DNA of 64,000 bases from Candidatus Poribacteria bacterium (GTDB taxonomy: Bacteria > Poribacteria > WGA-4E > WGA-3G). Below are positions 2,352 through 62,553 of the stretch, piece after piece (position 1 is the first letter of the stretch; the number at the start of each line of letters is the position of its first letter). The translations under genes and the position numbers were made by a program. The notes beneath the pieces were generated by a model that worked only from the letters and a program-made list of their open reading frames with translations, searched no databases and had not been told where the DNA came from. The stretch is taken from positions 25,782-89,781 of the forward strand of contig JAJECK010000015.1 of NCBI GenBank assembly GCA_022822085.1. The letters run 5' to 3'.

Positions 2352-3560
2352 ATGAAAATACTTTCACGTTATTGTCTTAAAGAGTTCATACCACCTTTTC
2401 TTATTGCCCTCTTATGTTTTACATGTATAATCCTTTTTGATGAACTTTTTCGACTTGTAAAACTCTTTGTTAAAAAAGGTGTAAATCCATTTTACTTAAT
2501 GGAATCGTTGTTGTATGTAATGCCAGCAACAGTTGTCTTATCTATTCCGATGGCTGCGTTAGTTGCTATCCTTCTGGCGTTAGGAAGATTCTCAACCGAT
2601 TCAGAAATTATGGCAATGCGTGCGCACGGGATAGCATTCCATCAACTTATGATACCGCTGATTAGTGCTACTGTTCTCTTGAGTGCAATTGACTTAGTTA
2701 TGATGGAATATGTTCTTCCAAAAGCAACTCTTGCATCCGTTTCTCTCAAACGCGACATCCAAAGACATAATCCTGCCCTCATTTTGGAAGAGGGTACCGT
2801 CATGAAAGAACTTCAGACTGAAGGTAAACTGTGGATGTACGAATCTACTGACCCAAAAACGGAACGTCTTCAAAATGTAAAAATCTGGGATCAAATATAT
2901 CCAGGACAACCTCGTCTTACGCTTGCCAAAACTGCTACTCTCGGATATGATAATGGGAATGCTAAATTAACACTTTACGATGGTGAAACTTATGAACCAC
3001 AGACAGATGGTTCAGAAGGTTTTAGAGTAACGCATTTTCAACAACAGCACATTTCACTTGACTTTACTAAGGACTTACAACGCGGTGAATATAAGTCGCA
3101 ACATCCGCAAACTATGCGTGTCGGTGAACTAAAAACCCATATTGAAAAATTAGAAAAATCTATAAATCTAAAACCGGATAGAATCTCCGAGTATACCGTT
3201 AATAAACTGCGGTATTCTAAAGTAGAATTTCACAAGAAGTTTGCACTCCCATTTGCCTGCTTAGCGTTTGGTATCATCGGTATCCCACTCGGGTTTATGG
3301 TCAAAAAGAACGGCAGAATGATTGGATTTGGTATTGGATTAGCTGTGATATTACTATATTATCTTCTGCTTCAGATAGGTCAAAATTCTGGTATCAACGG
3401 AAAATTACACCCCGCGTTTGCCATGTGGATTCCTAATATTGTAATTGGTGTAATTGGTATGGTACTCATTATGAGGATGTTCGGTGAAGGCAAACTCAAA
3501 GCTATGCAGAAAAAAGAACGCAAAATACCGTTGGTTGTTAACAGAAAAGCGGAATCTTAA
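2352..3560 (+). CDS. LPS export ABC transporter permease of the LptF/LptG (YjgP/YjgQ) family
   Basis: The N-terminus MKILSRYCLKEFIPPFLIALLCF is typical of YjgP/YjgQ permeases. It has multiple transmembrane segments, a periplasmic loop, and C-terminal transmembrane helices. It is paired with the next gene. Confidence 0.7.
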   Translation: MKILSRYCLKEFIPPFLIALLCFTCIILFDELFRLVKLFVKKGVNPFYLMESLLYVMPATVVLSIPMAALVAILLALGRFSTDSEIMAMRAHGIAFHQLMIPLISATVLLSAIDLVMMEYVLPKATLASVSLKRDIQRHNPALILEEGTVMKELQTEGKLWMYESTDPKTERLQNVKIWDQIYPGQPRLTLAKTATLGYDNGNAKLTLYDGETYEPQTDGSEGFRVTHFQQQHISLDFTKDLQRGEYKSQHPQTMRVGELKTHIEKLEKSINLKPDRISEYTVNKLRYSKVEFHKKFALPFACLAFGIIGIPLGFMVKKNGRMIGFGIGLAVILLYYLLLQIGQNSGINGKLHPAFAMWIPNIVIGVIGMVLIMRMFGEGKLKAMQKKERKIPLVVNRKAES

Positions 3561-3584
3561 TGTGTCATTAACAGGAATAATCAC

Positions 3585-4646
3585 TTGAACATTTTAGACA
3601 GGTATCTACTCAAGGACTACCTAAAGGCATTTTTTGTAGGTTTCCTATTCTTTAGCGCGCTCGTTGTCGTTGTCCGATTATTAGATAAGGACATAAAACA
3701 CTTTGAAGAAGGTATCTCTTACCTCACTGCGGTTAAAATAGTTTTGTACCAAGCACCACGACGGATAATGGAGATAGTCCCGGTTTCAGGTTTTGTCGCT
3801 ATTTTCTTCGTCCTCGGTCGCATGGTTCGCAACAACGAATTTGTTGCGATGAAAGCTGGTGGTATAAGTGTCTATAGAATACTGACACCTGTTATTATTG
3901 TTACGCTGTTACTATGTATAGTTTTCGCAGTATTCTATGATCGAGTTGCTTCTCCCATATTTCATCAGGCAAATCTATTGCAGAAAAAAGCAACACCGAA
4001 ACACGGAAGGTATCTTATATTTAAGGGGAAAGGCAACCGTGAATTTTACTTACATCAAATTAATTTGGTAGAGAAAAAAATTAATAAATTGACAATTTGG
4101 GAGTCAAATGAAGCAGGAGAGATTGATCGCATAATTTTTGCCAAAAATGCAACTTGGACACCGACACACTGGCAGATGAGTAATGGAGACATCCGCTATT
4201 TTGAGTATGGAGTGGAAATAGGGTATGAGACTTTTGATGAGAAGTCAATTGAGCGGCATGAGGATCCCGCTCGTTTCATAGGTAGTGATAAAGACCCGCG
4301 CGCCATGACCATTAAGGAATTAAAGGAACAGATTGCCTATAAAAAGGAAGCTGGACAAATCTCACGAATAGAACAGGTCAAGTTGCATCACAAAATCGCC
4401 TATCCTTTCGCTGCGGTTGTCGTTGTCATGTTAGGCTCACCAATTGCAATCCGGTTTGGAAAAGCAGGATTTTTTGCAGGATTAGTCATTGCATTCTTTC
4501 TGGTATTTATCTATTGGGCAATCTCCTTCGCAACACTTGAAGGATTAAGTGAAAACGGTAAACTTCATCCATTTTTAGCATGTTGGGGTGCAAACATCAT
4601 CTATGGAATTGTTGGTACTTTGCTAATATGGCAAACTCCAAGATAG
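3585..4646 (+). CDS. LPS export ABC transporter permease of the LptF/LptG (YjgP/YjgQ) family, second paralog
   Basis: The N-terminus MNILDRYLLKDYLKAFFVGFLFF is typical. Its architecture matches the upstream gene, giving a classic lptF-lptG tandem. Confidence 0.7.
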   Translation: MNILDRYLLKDYLKAFFVGFLFFSALVVVVRLLDKDIKHFEEGISYLTAVKIVLYQAPRRIMEIVPVSGFVAIFFVLGRMVRNNEFVAMKAGGISVYRILTPVIIVTLLLCIVFAVFYDRVASPIFHQANLLQKKATPKHGRYLIFKGKGNREFYLHQINLVEKKINKLTIWESNEAGEIDRIIFAKNATWTPTHWQMSNGDIRYFEYGVEIGYETFDEKSIERHEDPARFIGSDKDPRAMTIKELKEQIAYKKEAGQISRIEQVKLHHKIAYPFAAVVVVMLGSPIAIRFGKAGFFAGLVIAFFLVFIYWAISFATLEGLSENGKLHPFLACWGANIIYGIVGTLLIWQTPR

Positions 4647-5560: not shown

Positions 5561-6412
5561 TTGATTTTAGGAGGTGCCACAGCTGTGAAAGGAAGCAAGA
5601 AGGTTAAAATAATCATAAGTATCCTTAGTGTACTAGTTGTTGGGCTCATTGGATGGCAAGTGTTGAAAACCCAAACGCCTGACGTAAAGAAAATCCAACG
5701 AATGAACAAGACAAGCGGGGTAAATGACCGGAGAATCACTAAATATCCGTTTGTTCAGAGTGCTACAGAAAGGGAAACAGAAACACAACAAGAAGAGGTA
5801 GACATTGGACATCCTAAAATAGAAATACTACCTGTTCCAGAGACCGTGCCTACCGCTCAAAGCAGCGATGCTGAAATCAAGGAGTTTCAAGCCTGGCTTT
5901 CCTCCATCGTTAAGGAGGACAATCAAAAGGAAACAGAACAAGAGGATTCAAGTGCAGAAGTGGAAGAGAATAACGAATTCAATTCTGATCTTGAGACATC
6001 ACGTATAAAAATCATGATTGAGGATCAATGGAAAAATAGTCTTGAAACTTACGATATTGAAGGGTATATGTCCGCGATATGGGAAGATAATTTCTTCTAT
6101 GTCAGCGACATGGGCACACCTGATAATCAAGATGACGATCTGATAATTCGGAGTGGTCAACAAGAACGCGAAGCGGCATTGAATATGTTCAATACATTAG
6201 ATAGTATTCAATTGAATCTCTATAGAAATAGAGAAATTGAATTTTTGAGTAGGACGCTCGCTATCGCTGACTACGATTACGAACTCAAACTTTTCTCTCC
6301 AATGCCAATCAAAACAAATCCATCAGGACGCATGATTTTTATCTTGGAACTTCGAGAAGGTACTGATTGGCGTATTCTCGAATGGTATGATTTTGCAAAC
6401 CCAGATCCATAA
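5561..6412 (+). CDS. Hypothetical membrane-anchored acidic protein
   Basis: It has an N-terminal transmembrane helix (IISILSVLVVGLIGW) followed by an E/D/Q-rich region. No motif was recognised. The start may be an internal GTG. Confidence 0.4.
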   Translation: MILGGATAVKGSKKVKIIISILSVLVVGLIGWQVLKTQTPDVKKIQRMNKTSGVNDRRITKYPFVQSATERETETQQEEVDIGHPKIEILPVPETVPTAQSSDAEIKEFQAWLSSIVKEDNQKETEQEDSSAEVEENNEFNSDLETSRIKIMIEDQWKNSLETYDIEGYMSAIWEDNFFYVSDMGTPDNQDDDLIIRSGQQEREAALNMFNTLDSIQLNLYRNREIEFLSRTLAIADYDYELKLFSPMPIKTNPSGRMIFILELREGTDWRILEWYDFANPDP

Positions 6413-6995
6413 GAATTCCTCACACCTAAAATTCGTTTCAATCCAGATTCCATCTCCGTTGGCTGTCCATTGCTTATCAACGTATAACGAGGTTATATAA
6501 TGGATTTTGGCAATCAGGTTTCCCTGTCAGTAGTCATACCAGTATATAATAACGTGAGTTTGATAATAGATATATGAACTTCATTTGTCCGAAATATAGC
6601 TCTCATAGACACGGAAGGTGCGGTTTCCTGACCACACCATTGATATATTAACATATCTCGCTACCCTCTTTAGTTCCATGGAGGACCTAAAACCCCATAC
6701 AAATTACTACCATTTAGCATTAACGGAACAATAAAGAACAGCGAAAATATCGAAAACAAAACAACCCTGTTCTTTATACAAAATTCACTTGACAGTCATA
6801 ACATTAAAGATATAAAATATAAGTAGCGTAATTTATAAGCATAGAATTACGGTGTCAAAGACCAACCTGCTCTGAACCTTTAAGATTACATAGACGAATT
6901 TGTTGACTAATGCACCAACTATGTAGAACCTCTTGAATGTTCGTGAGTGATGATTTAAAACACACCAAATATCCAAACAGAAGGAGAAAATTAAG

Positions 6996-21078: not shown

Positions 21079-21822
21079 GTGAGTGAACCCGATGCATCAC
21101 GACCGGATGGTCATTCATACGATGTTGAGACAGAACTTTTACTTTGGTGGGAGGATTATTATTTACCTGTTTTTGAATATGTCCTCCCCAAAATGGGTGA
21201 TCTGCCAGGTAAACGTGTACTTGAGTTAGGCACTGGCACAGGTGGCACAGCAACACTTCTTGCCAAAAAAGGTGCCTCTGTTGTTGGAATTGATCTGTTG
21301 CCCTTTCGGTTAGATGAAGCGAAGGATAGGGTGAAACATCACAATGTCTCTGATTCGGTTGACTTTTCGCTCATGGATGCCACGCATCTTGCATTTCCAG
21401 ATAATACCTTTGATTTTGTAATCTCAAAATCCGTGTTAGTGTTTACTGAACACTCACTTACTGCAAAAGAGTGCTACCGTGTGTTAAAACCGGGTGGTAA
21501 GGCTATTTTCGTAGAGAATATGCAACATCACCCAGCAGTAAAACTGTACCGTAAGTTTTTCTTGAAATATTCTCAAGAATTGCATTACTTTTCACTATCC
21601 GATATTGAAGCGATTACCGTAGAATTTGATGGGATGGAACACAGAGAATTCCATCTTCTCTCTTTAGGTGCGCTATTTTGGCAAAAAGTTATCCCAATCT
21701 CTATCTTCTATCGGTGGACACTCCAAACTCTCAAATCTGTTGATAGATACTTACTACGTCTGTTTCCTTTCCTAAAACGAATCTGTTGGATCACAGCAAT
21801 GATCTGTAATAAAGAGGTCTAA
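21079..21822 (+). CDS. Class I SAM-dependent methyltransferase
   Basis: Motif I is VLELGTGTGGTATLLAKKGASVVGIDL. Motif II/III are spaced appropriately (VISKSVLVF... LKPGGKAIF). It uses a GTG start. Confidence 0.65.
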   Translation: MSEPDASRPDGHSYDVETELLLWWEDYYLPVFEYVLPKMGDLPGKRVLELGTGTGGTATLLAKKGASVVGIDLLPFRLDEAKDRVKHHNVSDSVDFSLMDATHLAFPDNTFDFVISKSVLVFTEHSLTAKECYRVLKPGGKAIFVENMQHHPAVKLYRKFFLKYSQELHYFSLSDIEAITVEFDGMEHREFHLLSLGALFWQKVIPISIFYRWTLQTLKSVDRYLLRLFPFLKRICWITAMICNKEV

Positions 21823-37514: not shown

Positions 37515-38168
37515 TTGAAGACCTTCATGAACATAAGAGGACTGTACTACATCACACATATTGACAACTTGTCATCTATTTTAAAGAGAGGAATCTTATG
37601 TCATGAAAGAATTGATGCTCTACAAATTCAGAACACGCCAATCTATGATATTGATCTTGTTAATAGACGGAAGGAAAGAAACACTCCGGATGGCAAGAAT
37701 CTCTGGCATTATGTAAACCTATTTTTTCAACCTCGTAACTCAATGCTCTATGGAGTTATAAAGTCAAATGGCATGAAGAACATCGCGGTGTTGGGAATAT
37801 CCAGAAATGTGTTGGACAGACAAGGAATCTTCATAACCAATGGAATTGCATGGAAAAGTTGTACTCAAATTTATCGAAAATCAATGGGAATGCAGTTCCT
37901 TGAGAAACAACAGGAAATACTCCAAAATGACGATTGGATTGACTGGCTCCATTCATCTAAAGTTAAAAATCAACTAATGGCTGAATGTTTGGTTCCTAAA
38001 CAAGTTGAGACAGAGTATATAAGAAAATTTATTGTTGCAGATAAGAGTGTAGCAGATTCAATAAAATGTAACCTTTCCAATGATAATATTCAGAAATTAG
38101 TTGTTGCAGCTAATAACGAAAACAACATATTCACTCCATTCAGCAAAAAAACTGTGATTTCAGCCTAA
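37515..38168 (+). CDS. DarT-like DNA ADP-ribosyltransferase (DUF4433)
   Basis: The N-terminus LYYITHIDNLSSILKRGIL matches the DarT/DUF4433 signature. A conserved ...MAECLVP... block (putative catalytic Glu) is present. It is 217 aa. Confidence 0.6.
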   Translation: MKTFMNIRGLYYITHIDNLSSILKRGILCHERIDALQIQNTPIYDIDLVNRRKERNTPDGKNLWHYVNLFFQPRNSMLYGVIKSNGMKNIAVLGISRNVLDRQGIFITNGIAWKSCTQIYRKSMGMQFLEKQQEILQNDDWIDWLHSSKVKNQLMAECLVPKQVETEYIRKFIVADKSVADSIKCNLSNDNIQKLVVAANNENNIFTPFSKKTVISA

Positions 38169-38239
38169 TACGGAACATATATGTCATAAGTAGGTACCGA
38201 ATGTTTATAATGACAAAATAACGTGATAAAAAATACAAT

Positions 38240-39451
38240 ATGAAGGGTCGTACAATGCAGAATAATAGTCTTTACTATATTACTCATTTAGACAACTTAC
38301 AATCAATTTTTGCAAACGGGATTCTATCCTTTGATAGATTGAAGTCAGAAAATAGAAATGTCATCTCAATATTTAAGGGAAAGACTAAGGCAAAGGATGA
38401 TATTAGTCTTAGATCCTCAATCGTTCCACAATTTTGCAAAGACAATTTATTGAGTTACGTCAGTCTCTATTTTCAACCACGTAACCCATTGTTGTATCGC
38501 GCTATTCTGGAAATTGGTCTCGAAAATCTTGTCATTCTTGAAGTTGCAAACACAGTCCTTAGTAACCCTGGAGTAGTCATTACCGATGGCAAATCCACTG
38601 AAGAGCTAACACAGTTCTATCCATGTCCTCAGGGTTTAAAAAGAATTAAGCAGTTGGACAAAACAATTCGGAGCGATTGGTGGAAAAAATGTGACGGATC
38701 AAAACGACAAATCATGGCAGAATGTTTAGTACCGGAGTCTGTCATTCCTGAGTACATTCGTTCAATTATCATGGCAGACGAAATAGAGACTTTACTTGGA
38801 AAGATAATGTTAGATAATATTAAATTACCCATTGTTTGTCAACCTGAGAAATTCTTCCAACCAAAACGGAGGATTGCTGTAAGTGAAAATATTACACTCA
38901 TTGATGGTGGTGATATGTTTTTCTCTGAGATGCAGACATTTACAATAACAGTCAACCTTCAAGGAATAATGGGTAAAGGTTTGGCTTTACGTGCTAGAGA
39001 ACAATTTTCTGACGTTTATGTTGAATATGAGAAAGCATGTAGAACTAAGAAAATCACTGCTGATCGTCCTTACATTTACAAGCGCGAGGAATCCGTTCTC
39101 CATGAGTTAGTGGATATAGAACCATACCGTAACAAGATTAGGACTCCCTACAGATGGTTTCTGCTTTTTGCAACAAAACGACATTGGAAAACAAACTCAC
39201 GTATTGAGGATATTGAGAATGGTTTGAAATGGGTACAGGAATACGCCAAAACGGAAGGTATGCGATCACTTGCCATGCCTGCTCTAGGTTGTGCTTTAGG
39301 AGGCTTAAATTGGAAAGATGTCGCACCTTTGATGTGCAAATATCTTGATGTAATTGGAATACCTATTGAGATCTATCTTCCCCGAGAATACCCAATTGAA
39401 TCTAGATATCTATCAGAATCACATTTATTTGCACATCAGGCAGTTAGTTAG
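38240..39451 (+). CDS. Fusion protein: N-terminal DarT-like (DUF4433) domain + C-terminal macrodomain (DarG-like ADP-ribose glycohydrolase)
   Basis: The N-terminus LYYITHLDNLQSIFANGIL and ...IMAECLVPESVIPEYI parallel the upstream gene. The C-terminal half has macrodomain motifs: NLQGIMGKGLALRAREQF, ATKRHWKTNSRIEDIENGL and AMPALGCALGGLNWKDVAPLM. Confidence 0.6.
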   Translation: MKGRTMQNNSLYYITHLDNLQSIFANGILSFDRLKSENRNVISIFKGKTKAKDDISLRSSIVPQFCKDNLLSYVSLYFQPRNPLLYRAILEIGLENLVILEVANTVLSNPGVVITDGKSTEELTQFYPCPQGLKRIKQLDKTIRSDWWKKCDGSKRQIMAECLVPESVIPEYIRSIIMADEIETLLGKIMLDNIKLPIVCQPEKFFQPKRRIAVSENITLIDGGDMFFSEMQTFTITVNLQGIMGKGLALRAREQFSDVYVEYEKACRTKKITADRPYIYKREESVLHELVDIEPYRNKIRTPYRWFLLFATKRHWKTNSRIEDIENGLKWVQEYAKTEGMRSLAMPALGCALGGLNWKDVAPLMCKYLDVIGIPIEIYLPREYPIESRYLSESHLFAHQAVS

Positions 39452-56017: not shown

Positions 56018-56695
56018 CATTTCCTTATAGTTCAGGACGGACGCATTCCGCATGATATAGTAAAACTTATACCATTTCTATTTAAGAAACTGTCATAAAG
56101 GCTTCCTTAAAGTCCCACTGATAAGGGGAATTTAGGAGGTTCTTCCAATTAGCGATGAGACTTTATTATTTAGAAATGGTATTACAATTAATGGTGCACT
56201 ACTGTAGCGCACACTGTTAGGTTGCGTCGTTTAATACAATACACAAACTAAATGAAGATTAAGAAATTAAATCGGTCCTTTTCATTATACATATTCGGTA
56301 CATTTCAAGTGCTCTTCAGTCGCGTCCAGACGATATGTTTATAGAATACCGCTTGACAACACAAACATAAACTCATAGCAGTTTGTGTACGCGTTGCTTC
56401 GCATAAAGGGCATATTTTTTATTTAATTCTTTCTTAATCGTCGCTGTTCCCCTTAAAACTAGTCAGAATAGTATATCAAAAATGAAACAATGTTGCAAAA
56501 AGAATTATCCAATTAATCACGAGTTGTGCAAAATAACTAATCGCAATATATATACTTACATAAACAGAATGCCTTGTCCATATTTCACTTTTGTTGGCAC
56601 CTTCTTTAGTCCCGTCCGGACGATATGTTTATAGCAGAATAATGCTAATAGTCATAAACAAATTAATACAAAACCCTTACACACCCATTTTTTAA

Positions 56696-56737
56696 TATTT
56701 TCTTGACATTTCTACAAAAATAGTGTATCCTTATATG
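56696..56737 (+). promoter_or_regulatory. Candidate leader promoter for the CRISPR array
   Basis: TTGACA-17 nt-TATCCT (cttgacatttctacaaaaatagtgtatcct) lies in the AT-rich region about 250 nt upstream of the first repeat. Confidence 0.35.
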
Positions 56738-56970
56738 CATAATCCCAAACGCGATTCGTCACTGCTCAAAAAAATCAGTCCAAATTGCTTATCAACCCAG
56801 ACAGTGACTTGATCAGCAGCGTGTTCATTCAAAAAATCGTGTTTGGTGTAGTGTTCATGCGGATTCTTCGGCAATTTTTCAAAATTTTTATCCGAAAAAA
56901 TCCCGAAATTCTGTCGCGTTTGGTTTTGGCAATTTTAGCCCGCACTGTGACTGGGTTCGCAGGGGGTGCT

Positions 56971-57428
56971 GTTCGGAAACACCTTCCCGTTTGAAGGGAA
57001 TTGAAACTTGACTACTCCGTCGTCTCCCGGTCCACCAACTGCTACTGTTCGGAAACACCTTCCCGTTTGAAGGGAATTGAAACAGGTCGAAAGTAATGAT
57101 CAGTTCGTCGTCATCGGTTAGGACGTTCGGAAACACCTTCCCGTTTGAAGGGAATTGAAACATAATGCCTTTTGAAGATTTTGTTGATGAAGATTTTGAG
57201 TTCGGAAACACTTTCCGTTTGAAGGGAATTGAAACAAAAAAAGGGTGGAAGATTGGAAGGATTCTGAAAGTCCTTACTGTTTGAAGGGAACCGAAGCAAA
57301 AAGGGTGGAAGGGTGGAAGATTAGAAGGAGTTCGGAAACCCCTTACTGTTTGAAGGGAATTGCAACTCTTCCAATCTTCCATCCTTCTTTCGTTCTGAAA
57401 GTCCATACTGTTTGAAGGGAACCGAAAC
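56971..57428 (+). CRISPR. CRISPR array: 37-bp repeat GTTCGGAAACACCTTCCCGTTTGAAGGGAATTGAAAC, four well-conserved plus three degenerate repeats
   Basis: Repeats are at 56971-57007, 57047-57083, 57125-57161 and 57199-57234 (the last has a 1-nt deletion), with unique spacers of 39, 41 and 37 bp. Degenerate repeats follow at ~57262-57297, 57330-57366 and ~57391-57428. The repeat ends in ATTGAAAC, the typical Cas6-type 8-nt 5' handle. It contains the internal palindrome cccgtttgaaggg. No cas genes lie within the window. Confidence 0.8.
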
Positions 57429-57496
57429 TCTTCCACCCTTCCACCCTTCTTCCACTGTCAGTTCAAAGTTTTTCCACAATAATAAGAGGCGGCTCT

Positions 57497-58069
57497 ATGA
57501 AATGCTTTACGTGGGAATATGGCCAGTTAACCACAGGTATACAGGTTGAGAGAGATGGCAGCCTTGGCATTATCGTGTCTCTCGGTCAAGATGGAAGAGG
57601 AGCGGGGAACTATCAGGAAAAAGTTGAATTGCTTCGAAAAAACCCGCCTGAAATAAAGGAGGGGGCTATCTTTGATGCACACCCTGTTAAGATTACCGCA
57701 AACTTAGAGCAAGACAGGTACTTTTATATGCTCGCAAAACCCACCGAACCTGACCCCCGCTTTATCGTGAGAATTCTCACAAGATGGGTATACGCCTACC
57801 GAACACACGGCAAATGGAGAACCATAAAAGGCAATCCTGAAGACCTTGTCGTTGGATGCGGTACCGACGATATAGTCATTAGACAAAATCCCACTTGGTA
57901 TGATGGCATCGTGCTGTTCTCCCCCGGTGATGCAGTTCGTGTGAAGCCGGAGGGTGCTCACGAAAATGAAAAATACGCTCTGGTTTGTGATGAGGACGGT
58001 ATGCATGACCTATTCTTTGGCGAATACAAAAACAAGTTTGCTACCGTGATCAAAGAGGAGTTCATCTAA
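57497..58069 (+). CDS. Hypothetical protein immediately downstream of the CRISPR array
   Basis: It is 190 aa. An RBS (aagaggcgg) lies upstream. No motif was recognised. Confidence 0.4.
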   Translation: MKCFTWEYGQLTTGIQVERDGSLGIIVSLGQDGRGAGNYQEKVELLRKNPPEIKEGAIFDAHPVKITANLEQDRYFYMLAKPTEPDPRFIVRILTRWVYAYRTHGKWRTIKGNPEDLVVGCGTDDIVIRQNPTWYDGIVLFSPGDAVRVKPEGAHENEKYALVCDEDGMHDLFFGEYKNKFATVIKEEFI

Positions 58070-58514
58070 TACATCGTAACGGCGAGTTCTCAAAACTCCC
58101 TCTCCCAATGTACACTTTAAAAATTTTGTTCTGTCTGTTCTATGGCTGGAATATACTGTGCGGGACGGCTCATTCAACATCAGAATAGTAAATCGTAAGT
58201 AAAATTGTATGTTAACAAATCTTGACATTCACCGAAATTTAATGGTACCCTTAAATGAAGGAGGCGAATATCATGAGAAAATTATTAAGTTGGATGAAGA
58301 AAGCGTTTATATTTCTTTTGAAAAATCGGCGCGGCAATATTTATCGGTGACATCAATGATTTAGCAAGGTGTTCGTCAACACCTTTACAGGCAGGTAACG
58401 CTAATCGTTATTTGCCTATTTTGTTTGCATAAATGGCATTCATAGCGTTCGGACAGAACTCAGGAAATCTCGGTTGAAAACCACGCCTACAATGTCCGAG
58501 GGGGCAAATCCTGG

Positions 58515-60877: not shown

Positions 60878-61547
60878 ATGGCTGCTATCCGTATTTTCAT
60901 CAGTAGTGTCCAAAATGAATTTGCTCAAGAACGCAAAGCAATGCGCGACTATTTGCTGAACGATGCATTGCTCAGTAGATTCTTTGATGTGTTTCTATTT
61001 GAGGACGTTCCTGCATCTACATTGTATCTGGATGAACTAACACAATCCGAACTCTATGTGGGGATTTTCTAATTTAACATTGGAGCAATTAAGGGTTGCG
61101 CACACGTCAATTCCTACTAATCCACTGCTTGCTGAACCTTTATACCTTGTAAAGTACATTGAACGGATGGGAACAGGAACATTAGACATGATACGCCGTT
61201 GCGGGGATGCAGGATTGCCTGAACCCGAATTTGACGATAGTAGTGGATTTAAGGTGACGATATGGCGTGCCAATCCAAAAGGGCAGCCAGAGACGCAAGC
61301 ACATAACTTAACATCAAAGGCACTCAATCTAATTGCAGACGGACCGAGGCAGAAATCAGAATTGTCTAAAAGTTTAGGACAGAAACGGATATCGGGGCGA
61401 CTCAACAAAGTTGTCCAACACCTGCTGAGTGATGAGATGATTGAATATACACTGCCAGATAAACCGACGAGTCGCCTGCAGAAATATCGCTTGACAGAAA
61501 AGGGAAGAACTGAACTATTGAATATGAAATCAATGAAAGAGGATTAA
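60878..61547 (+). pseudogene. Remnant of a DUF4062 + ATPase + HATPase_c_4 (RecG-C-terminal-like / Schlafen-AlbA-type) gene, internally deleted or frameshifted
   Basis: ORF 60878..61072 encodes a DUF4062-like N-terminus (MAAIRIFISSVQNEFAQERKAMRDYL). The overlapping out-of-frame ORF 61056..61547 encodes the typical C-terminal ...YIERMGTGTLDMIRRCGDAGLPEPEFDD.. block. The central ATPase portion is absent. Confidence 0.4.
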
Positions 61548-61626
61548 GTTAACCCGAGTTTGCTAATAAAAAACAGTAACCACTGTCCGTTAGGAACCCA
61601 CCTACAATATAAAATATGGAGAATTT

Positions 61627-62553
61627 ATGGAAAACGCTCTTGAGAAACAACGAACATCAATTTCTGAACTGCGTCCGCAGATCGAAAACCTTATCCAGTC
61701 GAGTATTTCTGCTAATACGAAAAAGGCATATCAACGCGCTTTACAAGGGATCGAAAATTGGCTGCCCGCAGGTGAGCCGTTGTCGGATCACTTGCTGGCT
61801 GCGTATTTGACAGAACTGCACGAGAAAGGAAAATCCCCATCAACCATCTCGCAGGTTGTGGCTGCAGTGAAATGGCAGATGAAACATCAACCCGGAGCCG
61901 ACTTTCCGTTGCCGACTACCTACGCGACTTTGGCGGGTATCCGGCGTGATGGTAAGGCACGAGGACGTGGACAGGTGGACGGTATGATTTGGCAAGATGT
62001 AGAACGGGTCTGTATTCTGGCAGAAACCGATGGCACACTCGCGGGGTTACGAGATTCCGCTATGATACGGTTGATGAGCGATTGCCTGCTGCGTATCAGT
62101 GAAGTGGTTGCAGTGAACGCTGGCGATTTGAAGGAGCGGACGCTGTCGGTACAGGCTTCAAAATCTGACCAGGAGGGGCGCGGGGAAAGTCTTTATGTGT
62201 GTGATAGAACTCGCGATATCTTGACGAAATATAAAGAGATGGGCAGTATTCAGGAAGGCCCGATGTTCCGACAGATTCGCCGTGGTGGACATATTCAGGA
62301 GAACAGACTGCACGATCATTCTGCTCGGAGAATCGTCCAGAAACGTGCATCGGATGCGGGTGTAGTCGGGTTTATCTCTGGGCATTCGTTGCGTGTTGGT
62401 TCTGCAATGTCGCTGGCTTCCGCTGGTGCGACTGTAGTTGATATGCAGGTTGCGGGACGGTGGAAGTCGTCTCAGATGCCGGCGCATTATGCGAAGGCGG
62501 AATTGGCAGAACGCGGTGCTATTGCGCGGTTTAAGGATGGAAAAATGCAATGA
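61627..62553 (+). CDS. Tyrosine-type site-specific recombinase (phage-integrase family)
   Basis: It has a SAM-like N-terminal domain. The C-terminal catalytic region has ...GLRDSAMIRLMSDCLLRISEVVAV... and HSLRVGSAMSLASAGATVVDMQVAGRWKSSQMPAHYAK, with the conserved HxxR and a C-terminal Tyr. The RBS is tggagaatttatg. Confidence 0.75.
   Translation: MENALEKQRTSISELRPQIENLIQSSISANTKKAYQRALQGIENWLPAGEPLSDHLLAAYLTELHEKGKSPSTISQVVAAVKWQMKHQPGADFPLPTTYATLAGIRRDGKARGRGQVDGMIWQDVERVCILAETDGTLAGLRDSAMIRLMSDCLLRISEVVAVNAGDLKERTLSVQASKSDQEGRGESLYVCDRTRDILTKYKEMGSIQEGPMFRQIRRGGHIQENRLHDHSARRIVQKRASDAGVVGFISGHSLRVGSAMSLASAGATVVDMQVAGRWKSSQMPAHYAKAELAERGAIARFKDGKMQ

Follow-up and report, generated by a model that had tools for sequence, protein, structure and literature searches.

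A small CRISPR array with a predicted trailer hairpin beside an array-associated gene family in Candidatus Poribacteria

A short array and its genomic setting

The locus lies on a 64,000-nucleotide stretch of contig JAJECK010000015.1 of a Candidatus Poribacteria bacterium; this whole stretch is referred to below as the window. A repeat finder applied to the window returned a 37-nt repeat, GTTCGGAAACACCTTCCCGTTTGAAGGGAATTGAAAC, with exact copies starting at positions 56971, 57047 and 57125 (R1–R3), and exact matches to it were found in none of 100 shuffles of the window. The first-pass annotation had described four clean repeats; three are indeed exact, while the fourth, R4 (57200–57235), is 36 nt long and carries one substitution and a 1-nt deletion relative to GTTCGGAAACACCTTCCCGTTTGAAGGGAATTGAAAC. 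The spacers between them are unique, as had been reported, and similar in length (S1–S3; 39, 41 and 38 nt at 57008–57046, 57084–57124 and 57162–57199), so that the locus contains three exact and one near-exact copies of a 37-nt repeat separated by unique sequence of near-constant size. The canonical repeat is predicted to form a weak 5-bp stem and ends in an 8-nt 3' tag, ATTGAAAC. On the basis of repeats, spacers and folding, the part of the array predicted to be processable comprises R1–R3, which are perfect, R4, which keeps the stem through a G-U pair, and S1–S3 (56971–57235, plus strand).

The 300 nt upstream of R1 (56671–56970, plus strand) constitute an AT-rich CRISPR leader, which resembles the leaders of at least 24 Candidatus Poribacteria loci and is 92.6% and 94.4% identical, respectively, to those of two orthologous loci, L101 and L102. 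It contains a predicted promoter, TTGACA-17-TATCCT (56703–56731, plus strand), which matches the consensus at 10 of 12 positions; a TTGACA..TATACT/TATCCT block is also present in the leaders of L039, L065, L008, L101 and L102. A leader identity of 92.6–94.4%, set against 76% at four-fold degenerate sites of the neighbouring gene, suggests that the conservation of leader and promoter well exceeds the neutral level. A 31- to 39-nt segment upstream of the leader (56600–56641) recurs with 87–94% identity in L043, L058, L060, L065, L066, L079 and L081, and is another dispersed short repeat of the Poribacteria.

The exact repeats, together with the conserved leader and promoter and the existence of relatives adjacent to cas genes (see below), lead us to identify the feature as a genuine but small CRISPR array that is read on the plus strand. 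A minus-strand open reading frame (56888–57436, 182 aa) spans the array, and the public record places a 172-aa gene there (L001 9392–9910). We considered whether the locus might contain no CRISPR at all, but rather a coding tandem repeat on the minus strand, as this frame and its annotation in the source record would imply. Such a reading is scarcely credible beside the exact repeats, the unique spacers, the conserved leader and the cas-adjacent relatives, and the frame merely reads through the repeats; the gene call over the array is an annotation artefact of those repeats.

Searches for the origin of the spacers were negative within their scope. S1–S3, which had been proposed as queries against viral and plasmid metagenomes, had no match within the window or in related loci, and their 22-mers had no exact match among viral contigs in a search restricted to exact matching. 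The 22-mers of GTTCGGAAACACCTTCCCGTTTGAAGGGAATTGAAAC likewise had no exact match there. No Rfam model matched the window at gathering thresholds; when the limit was relaxed to E ≤ 1, CRISPR-DR54 was returned below threshold (24 bits relative to a 39-bit cutoff), as were generic miRNA-hairpin models over the segments in the fifth and sixth spacer positions and the sixth repeat between them, which reflect hairpin shape only.

The array is flanked, as the first-pass annotation stated, by a GFO/IDH/MocA oxidoreductase gene and by a gene for a 190-aa protein without a Pfam match. The latter, which we call p190 (57497–58069), lies on the array strand (plus) and belongs to an uncharacterised family. 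It is preceded by a predicted promoter, CTGTCA-17-AATAAT (57455–57483, plus strand), with a 9/12 consensus match; this block is conserved in L102, with TTGTCA in place of CTGTCA. The reported absence of Cas proteins from the 64 kb held, as 0 of 58 window open reading frames matched a PADLOC Cas model, and no cas gene was found in the 4 kb beyond the window in L001. PADLOC did return other defence functions from the window. A DarT homologue (37515–38165, plus) is followed by a gene (38240–39448, plus) whose product has an N-terminal DarT-like domain and a C-terminal region resembling the DarG macrodomain (E = 2.5e-33, 1.6e-26 and 5.9e-41 for the DarT/DarG matches); this pair (37515–39448), about 18 kb from the array, is a DarTG-type defence module. 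A further gene at 21079–21819 (plus), matched by PADLOC to mad2 of the MADS system (E = 3.5e-25), may be a fragment of a different defence system.

The repeat family and the orthologous loci

The repeat core was found in 99 stretches of genomic DNA, almost all from Poribacteria metagenome-assembled genomes, in arrays of up to 76 matches. When the flanking open reading frames of these 99 loci were clustered and the representatives scanned against protein families, the neighbours of the arrays proved to include Cas1 (24 loci), Cas6 (12 loci) and a reverse transcriptase of the group II intron type (18 loci), as well as Cas10/Cmr2-like, Csx10, Csx7, TIGR03986 RAMP and CARF proteins. Together, these genes make up a III-D-like system whose adaptation module is of the RT-Cas1 kind, and the window array is a further member of this known repeat family. 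The tag ATTGAAAC and the presence of Cas6 genes near family arrays fit that assignment and suggest processing by Cas6. The window array resembles other type III-D/RT-Cas1 arrays in repeat length, in its 8-nt tag and weak 5-bp stem, in its AT-rich, promoter-bearing leader and in its spacers of 38–41 nt; unlike them, it has no cas gene within 64 kb, only three real spacers, and a trailer that consists of a low-complexity element rather than decayed spacers. The description of the array as an orphan is therefore accurate for the window but not for the repeat family, which adjoins type III-D cas and RT-Cas1 genes in other genomes.

Orthologous loci were reached through homologues of p190. In L101, where p190 is 72–73.5% identical, the same leader is present and a 42-repeat array lies upstream of the gene. 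L104, a 6.2-Mb contig, has an identical repeat in at least 59 copies and an array interrupted by an insertion sequence, the DDE transposase of which lies mid-array (2720–4039); this locus also has a deletion, which has taken the trailer module and left p190 without its N-terminal half. In L102, which derives from a second strain in the same metagenome, the leader is retained with only two degenerate repeats. The orthologous site thus holds 2 (L102), 7 (window), 42 (L101) or at least 59 (L104) repeats, and no unique spacer is common to any of these loci, which marks it as an active array site in the lineage, of which the window carries a short version. Given the repeat family, the conserved leader and promoter, and the large orthologous arrays of 42 and at least 59 repeats, we consider it more likely that the window array is remote from its cas genes and served in trans than that it is a relic.

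Two further observations concern the surroundings of these arrays. About 3.5 kb 3' of the window array (61056–62553, plus) are genes for a Fic-like/HATPase_c_4 protein and for a tyrosine recombinase, and the same pair stands beside the orthologous array in L101 (637–1950); its proximity to both arrays suggests that the array may lie at the boundary of an integrated element. In addition, the ends of several family arrays carry GGGTGTGTAAAG...TTTGTCAGAATCGCGG (L082 ~4000, L008 ~3990, L013 ~4800, L060 ~3670 and L104 5849–5880), which is the reverse complement of sequence located upstream of leaders (..CGCGATTCTGACAAA..CTTTACACACCC), so that some arrays look bracketed by inverted repeats.

The trailer module

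Beyond R4, the plus strand reads as an alternation of short segments and three degenerate repeats, the latter as previously reported. Purine arm 1 (AAAAAAAGGGTGGAAGATTGGAAGG, in the position of a fourth spacer; 57236–57260), recognised by complementarity and by similarity to L014, is followed by R5 (ATTCTGAAAGTCCTTACTGTTTGAAGGGAACCGAAGC; 57261–57297), which is 97% identical to R7; by purine arm 2 (fifth position, recognised by complementarity; 57298–57329); by R6 (57330–57366; repeat finder and folding), the apical loop of the predicted hairpin; by pyrimidine arm 1 (sixth position; 57367–57391); and by R7 (57392–57428; repeat finder and folding), for which no stable stem is predicted. The three intervening segments are 25, 32 and 25 nt long. 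An additional 25-nt segment, pyrimidine arm 2 (57429–57453), lies 3' of R7 and, like pyrimidine arm 1, was recognised by complementarity and folding; the feature therefore extends about 25 nt past 57428, where the first-pass annotation had ended it.

That annotation had noted near reverse complements among these segments, and two were confirmed: 57233–57259 is 89% complementary to 57368–57394 over 27 nt, and 57298–57320 is 96% complementary to 57429–57451 over 23 nt. The alternative, nested pairings are of purine arm 1 with 57430–57451 (22 nt, 86%) and of purine arm 2 with 57368–57387 (20 nt, 90%); the best pairings are thus interleaved and not nested (89–96% versus 86–90%). Folding of the RNA from 57225 to 57465 predicted a nested hairpin of −88.3 kcal/mol (z = −4.07), and none of 200 shuffles was as stable, consistent with the earlier suggestion that a long hairpin could form. 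The purine segments are built of GGTGGAAG-type octamers and the pyrimidine segments of their complement. As the arms are the two orientations of one element, their complementarity is automatic, and their low complexity, with an 8-nt period, inflates the complementarity as well as the apparent conservation. We rejected a role for the trailer as an intrinsic terminator: the hairpin lacks a U-tract, no terminator was predicted in 57200–57500, and the nearest one predicted on the plus strand lies at 58389–58417.

The degenerate repeats had been presumed to reflect decay, and in this respect our results differ. R5–R7 carry a common signature, namely a GTTCTGAAAGTCC 5' end, a GGGAACCGAAAC 3' end and a TCCCG-to-TACTG change in the stem, and folding predicts that this change removes the canonical 5-bp repeat stem. 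The GTTCTGAAAGTCC...GGGAACCGAAAC and TACTG signature is also found in the terminal repeats of L101 and L104, so that R5–R7 are old terminal repeats rather than products of fresh, random decay.

Neither do the arms appear to be decayed spacers. A (GGTGGAAG)n/(CTTCCAYC)n element adjoins arrays in 12 of 77 related loci, and across the 77 loci the 700 nt preceding the first repeat contain its tracts at about eight times the density of the remaining flanking DNA. In the chromosomal DNA beside arrays, the element forms runs of 200–700 nt. At the terminus of the L087 array are three identical units of a degenerate repeat plus a pyrimidine segment, and L014 has three units of a repeat plus a purine segment, which are 87–90% identical to R4 and purine arm 1 of the window; further downstream in L014 is (CTTCCATC)x10, a pyrimidine run several hundred nucleotides from the purine units. 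The gene 3' of the L014 trailer is an unrelated 429-aa open reading frame, indicating that the low-complexity trailer is not tied to that gene. A switch from purine to pyrimidine within about 100 nt was found in the window and L101 only; tracts other than those of the window, L101 and L014 keep a single orientation over hundreds of nucleotides. From these comparisons, we take the window trailer segments to be copies of a lineage-specific low-complexity element that does not derive from an invader. Intergenic simple repeats of the REP or MITE kind offer a parallel, as runs of the element recur beside arrays with other Poribacteria-specific short repeats; the window element differs in being cut into spacer-sized pieces and in switching strand within about 100 nt.

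An alternative is that the segments are genuine spacers of old date, taken from a mobile element with (CTTCCACC)n tracts and inserted in both orientations. They do stand in spacer positions, and type III systems with RT-Cas1 can take up spacers in either orientation (PMC5576922). At 25–32 nt, however, they do not fit the 38–41 nt of real spacers, being too short to have come from the same adaptation machinery; the 20-nt core of the element had no exact match in any viral contig; tracts of the same element run for 200–700 nt in chromosomal DNA beside arrays; and if the segments were old trailer spacers, it would be surprising for them alone to be shared with L101 and L014. Taken together, this makes a spacer origin very unlikely.

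Around the arrays themselves, tracts 5' of the first repeat are always in the pyrimidine orientation, in the array sense. In L008, L039, L041, L056, L065 and L069, (CTTCCAYC)n lies just 5' of the leader promoter, about 300–700 nt before the first repeat, and the C-rich, G-poor RNA of such tracts might serve as a Rho-loading insulator. The idea that complementary low-complexity arms are present in every Poribacteria trailer was rejected: an inverted-repeat search of 60 related trailers found long inverted repeats to be rare (median score 8.5, close to the 10 on the leader side). In most family arrays, the final repeat merely has a truncated 3' tag. A metagenome scan for the repeat joined to the purine spacer found nothing.

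At the orthologous position in L101, the order is the last tagged repeat, a purine arm, a truncated degenerate repeat, a pyrimidine arm and the p190 ribosome-binding site, and this simpler module is also predicted to fold stably (−63.8 kcal/mol, z = −4.6). We suggest that the ancestral unit persists in L101 and that the window carries what looks like a duplicated version; the most likely origin of the window trailer is a local duplication of such a unit (purine arm, degenerate repeat, pyrimidine arm). The two loci are well diverged (dS ~0.39, with 76% identity at four-fold sites). Between them the module is 83–89.5% identical; the corresponding figures are 76% for four-fold sites and about 71% for the downstream intergenic DNA, and low complexity inflates that of the module.

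For the function of this architecture, we propose that, at the leader-distal end of this array of the III-D/RT-Cas1 family, a duplicated trailer hairpin yields no crRNAs and closes the array; we hold this closing role to be about evenly balanced between true and false. The leader promoter would transcribe the array on the plus strand into a pre-crRNA, and Cas6 supplied from elsewhere in the genome would cut at R1–R4 to release three normal crRNAs. The RNA 3' of the R4 cut would possess a 5' tag, but its guide would be locked in the purine:pyrimidine hairpin, and R5–R7 would be poor Cas6 substrates; with the guide locked and the repeats poorly cut, no "extraneous" crRNAs should arise from the trailer. 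The structured trailer RNA would then close the array transcript just 5' of the predicted −35 box of p190. Stable structures are predicted at the array edge both in the window (z = −4.07) and in L101 (z = −4.6).

There is precedent for such an arrangement. Mutation of the terminal repeat suppresses extraneous crRNA in type V-A arrays (PMC6610086), and in types VI and II, hairpins between leader and repeat have the same effect (PMC13187072). As in those cases, the repeat belonging to a non-spacer guide would be disabled at the array edge by mutation, by a hairpin, or by both. They differ in that the systems are of class 2 and the repeat itself is sequestered (in the hairpins, by pairing with the leader), whereas in this type III array the pseudo-spacer arms would pair and the repeats would form loops. 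Nothing comparable has been reported for type III. A conserved hairpin around disabled terminal repeats would extend the suppression of edge crRNAs, shown so far for class 2 only, to type III systems.

Several results weigh against such a closing function: the module is absent from L102 and L104 (two of the four orthologous loci), inverted repeats are rare among trailers, and a simple cis hairpin does not explain why the best pairs are interleaved. These absences and the rarity of inverted repeats, together with the prevalence of truncated-tag endings and of duplicated terminal units, make a neutral origin a serious rival, although on balance we find it somewhat doubtful. Under that explanation, the module is a by-product of slippage or unequal recombination of terminal repeats in simple-sequence DNA of both orientations, at an array end that is decaying. 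The identical or near-identical terminal units of L087 and L014 would be similar products; the module is missing from L104, which retains the array, and from L102, which retains the gene; low-complexity tracts occur elsewhere around arrays in either orientation; and Shmakov et al. judged degenerate repeats near type III arrays to be probably non-functional (PMC10120712). Against it, the order of purine arm, degenerate repeat and pyrimidine arm has been kept in L101 at a dS of ~0.39, module identity exceeds that of four-fold sites, and the strand switch within ~100 nt is restricted to these two loci, other tracts being unidirectional.

The p190 family and array-embedded genes

The p190 protein had no Pfam, PHROG or PADLOC match. 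Its family has 338 representatives in a library of 1.84 billion proteins, many of which are 500–950 aa long with two matched stretches each; the four long homologues examined have a conserved C-terminal region in common, and no Pfam domain was found in the long homologues. The dN/dS of p190 is 0.35–0.39. An AlphaFold model built from a 22-sequence alignment was confidently all-beta (pLDDT 83.4, pTM 0.83), while one from an 8-sequence alignment was unusable (pLDDT 41.5). The all-beta model had no meaningful structural neighbour, and the sequence had no relative in the PDB.

The position of these genes is recurrent. A homologue follows CRISPR repeats directly, or stands between them, in each of L101, L104, L105, L106, L107, L110 and L111, and in contigs of the Poribacteria type the gene is on the array strand, directly 3' of the last repeat. 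In L105 (p190 homologue at 5971–6621) and L106 (5905–6620), the order is reverse transcriptase, Cas1, leader, array and p190; the same order is present in L110 (4858–5610), with Cas2, Cas6 and Csm6 nearby. In L111 (4943–6470), the p190 ATG lies 38 nt past the last repeat, and the gene is followed by a further repeat and then a second p190 copy. All of these copies, and that of L107 (1–450), lie on the array strand in type III-D/RT-Cas1 loci. A significant repeat was found 3' of the p190 stop codon in six cases (L105, L106, L107, L110 and both L111 copies); a candidate repeat relic after the stop codon of the window p190 was rejected as not significant (shuffle p = 0.75). The homologues in L103, L109 and L112 have no array, and L108 is a high-GC outlier. 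No p190 homologue was found within the 99 repeat-core genome loci, and a metagenome scan with the p190 alignment returned one unrelated high-GC locus, in which repeats are absent.

This linkage raises the question of whether the trailer acts on p190. In CreTA, mini-arrays and CRISIS (PMC9458426, PMC10120712, 10.1101/2024.12.27.630466), as here, short pseudo-spacers between degenerate repeats are complementary to a site just 5' of an adjacent non-cas gene, and the window might accordingly encode a type III regulator of that kind, in which crRNA-like RNAs from R4-S4-R5 and R5-S5-R6 (S4 and S5 being the two purine arms) pair with the pyrimidine segments 5' of p190. The gene would then be expressed according to the state of the CRISPR machinery. 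Both candidate mini-arrays do consist of a pseudo-spacer flanked by degenerate repeats, and 2 nt separate the complementary sites from the predicted −35 element of p190, a geometry akin to that of crlRNA targets, which lie 37–46 bp upstream of the transcription start (10.1101/2024.12.27.630466). The interleaving of the best complementarity is as expected of trans-acting pairs, and p190 genes are closely associated with arrays.

Other results lead us to regard regulation of p190 in this manner as improbable. The effectors associated with the family are of type III-D, which target RNA and are PAM-less, whereas known regulators use DNA-binding type I or V-A effectors that require a PAM, have only partial complementarity to their sites and repress promoters; complementarity in the window is near-complete. 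The stems of R5–R7 are broken, and nothing points to p190 being toxic or defensive. The window module is also contiguous with its array, unlike those systems, and is missing at most p190 loci: it was found in L101 only and is absent from L102, L105, L106, L110 and L111, all of which keep the gene. For type III mini-arrays, the survey of Shmakov et al. turned up no targets, and the authors took such arrays to be degraded repeats (PMC10120712).

The closing hairpin is our preferred reading of the trailer, and the genes embedded in arrays are considered separately. A second family, of ~95–100 aa with the motif (E/D)HPY(S/T)VF..RL, occurs just after or between the repeats of Poribacteria arrays; its members lie 3' of array trailers in L020 (4859–5137) and L048 (1824–2093), and homologues are present in the array loci L082 (3545–3844) and L060 (2541–2810 and 3297–3596). 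The arrangement of both families suggests that p190 and the ~100-aa genes are cassettes co-transcribed with arrays, and the recurrent position of p190 after or between repeats suggests transcripts defined by Cas6 processing. No description of array-embedded gene cassettes was found in the literature searched. Whereas the array alone is a member of a known family and the origin of its trailer is mundane, the hairpin architecture and the embedded genes go beyond that.

It is conceivable, though rather unlikely, that the cassette mRNAs originate at the array promoter and are excised by Cas6, and that the window module is a crRNA-like or processing-sensing switch of type III, with guide and target on one transcript. 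If so, expression of the embedded genes would be tied to the condition of the CRISPR RNA machinery. The cassette arrangement would then be a novelty, as would a type III crRNA-like regulator whose target can be identified.
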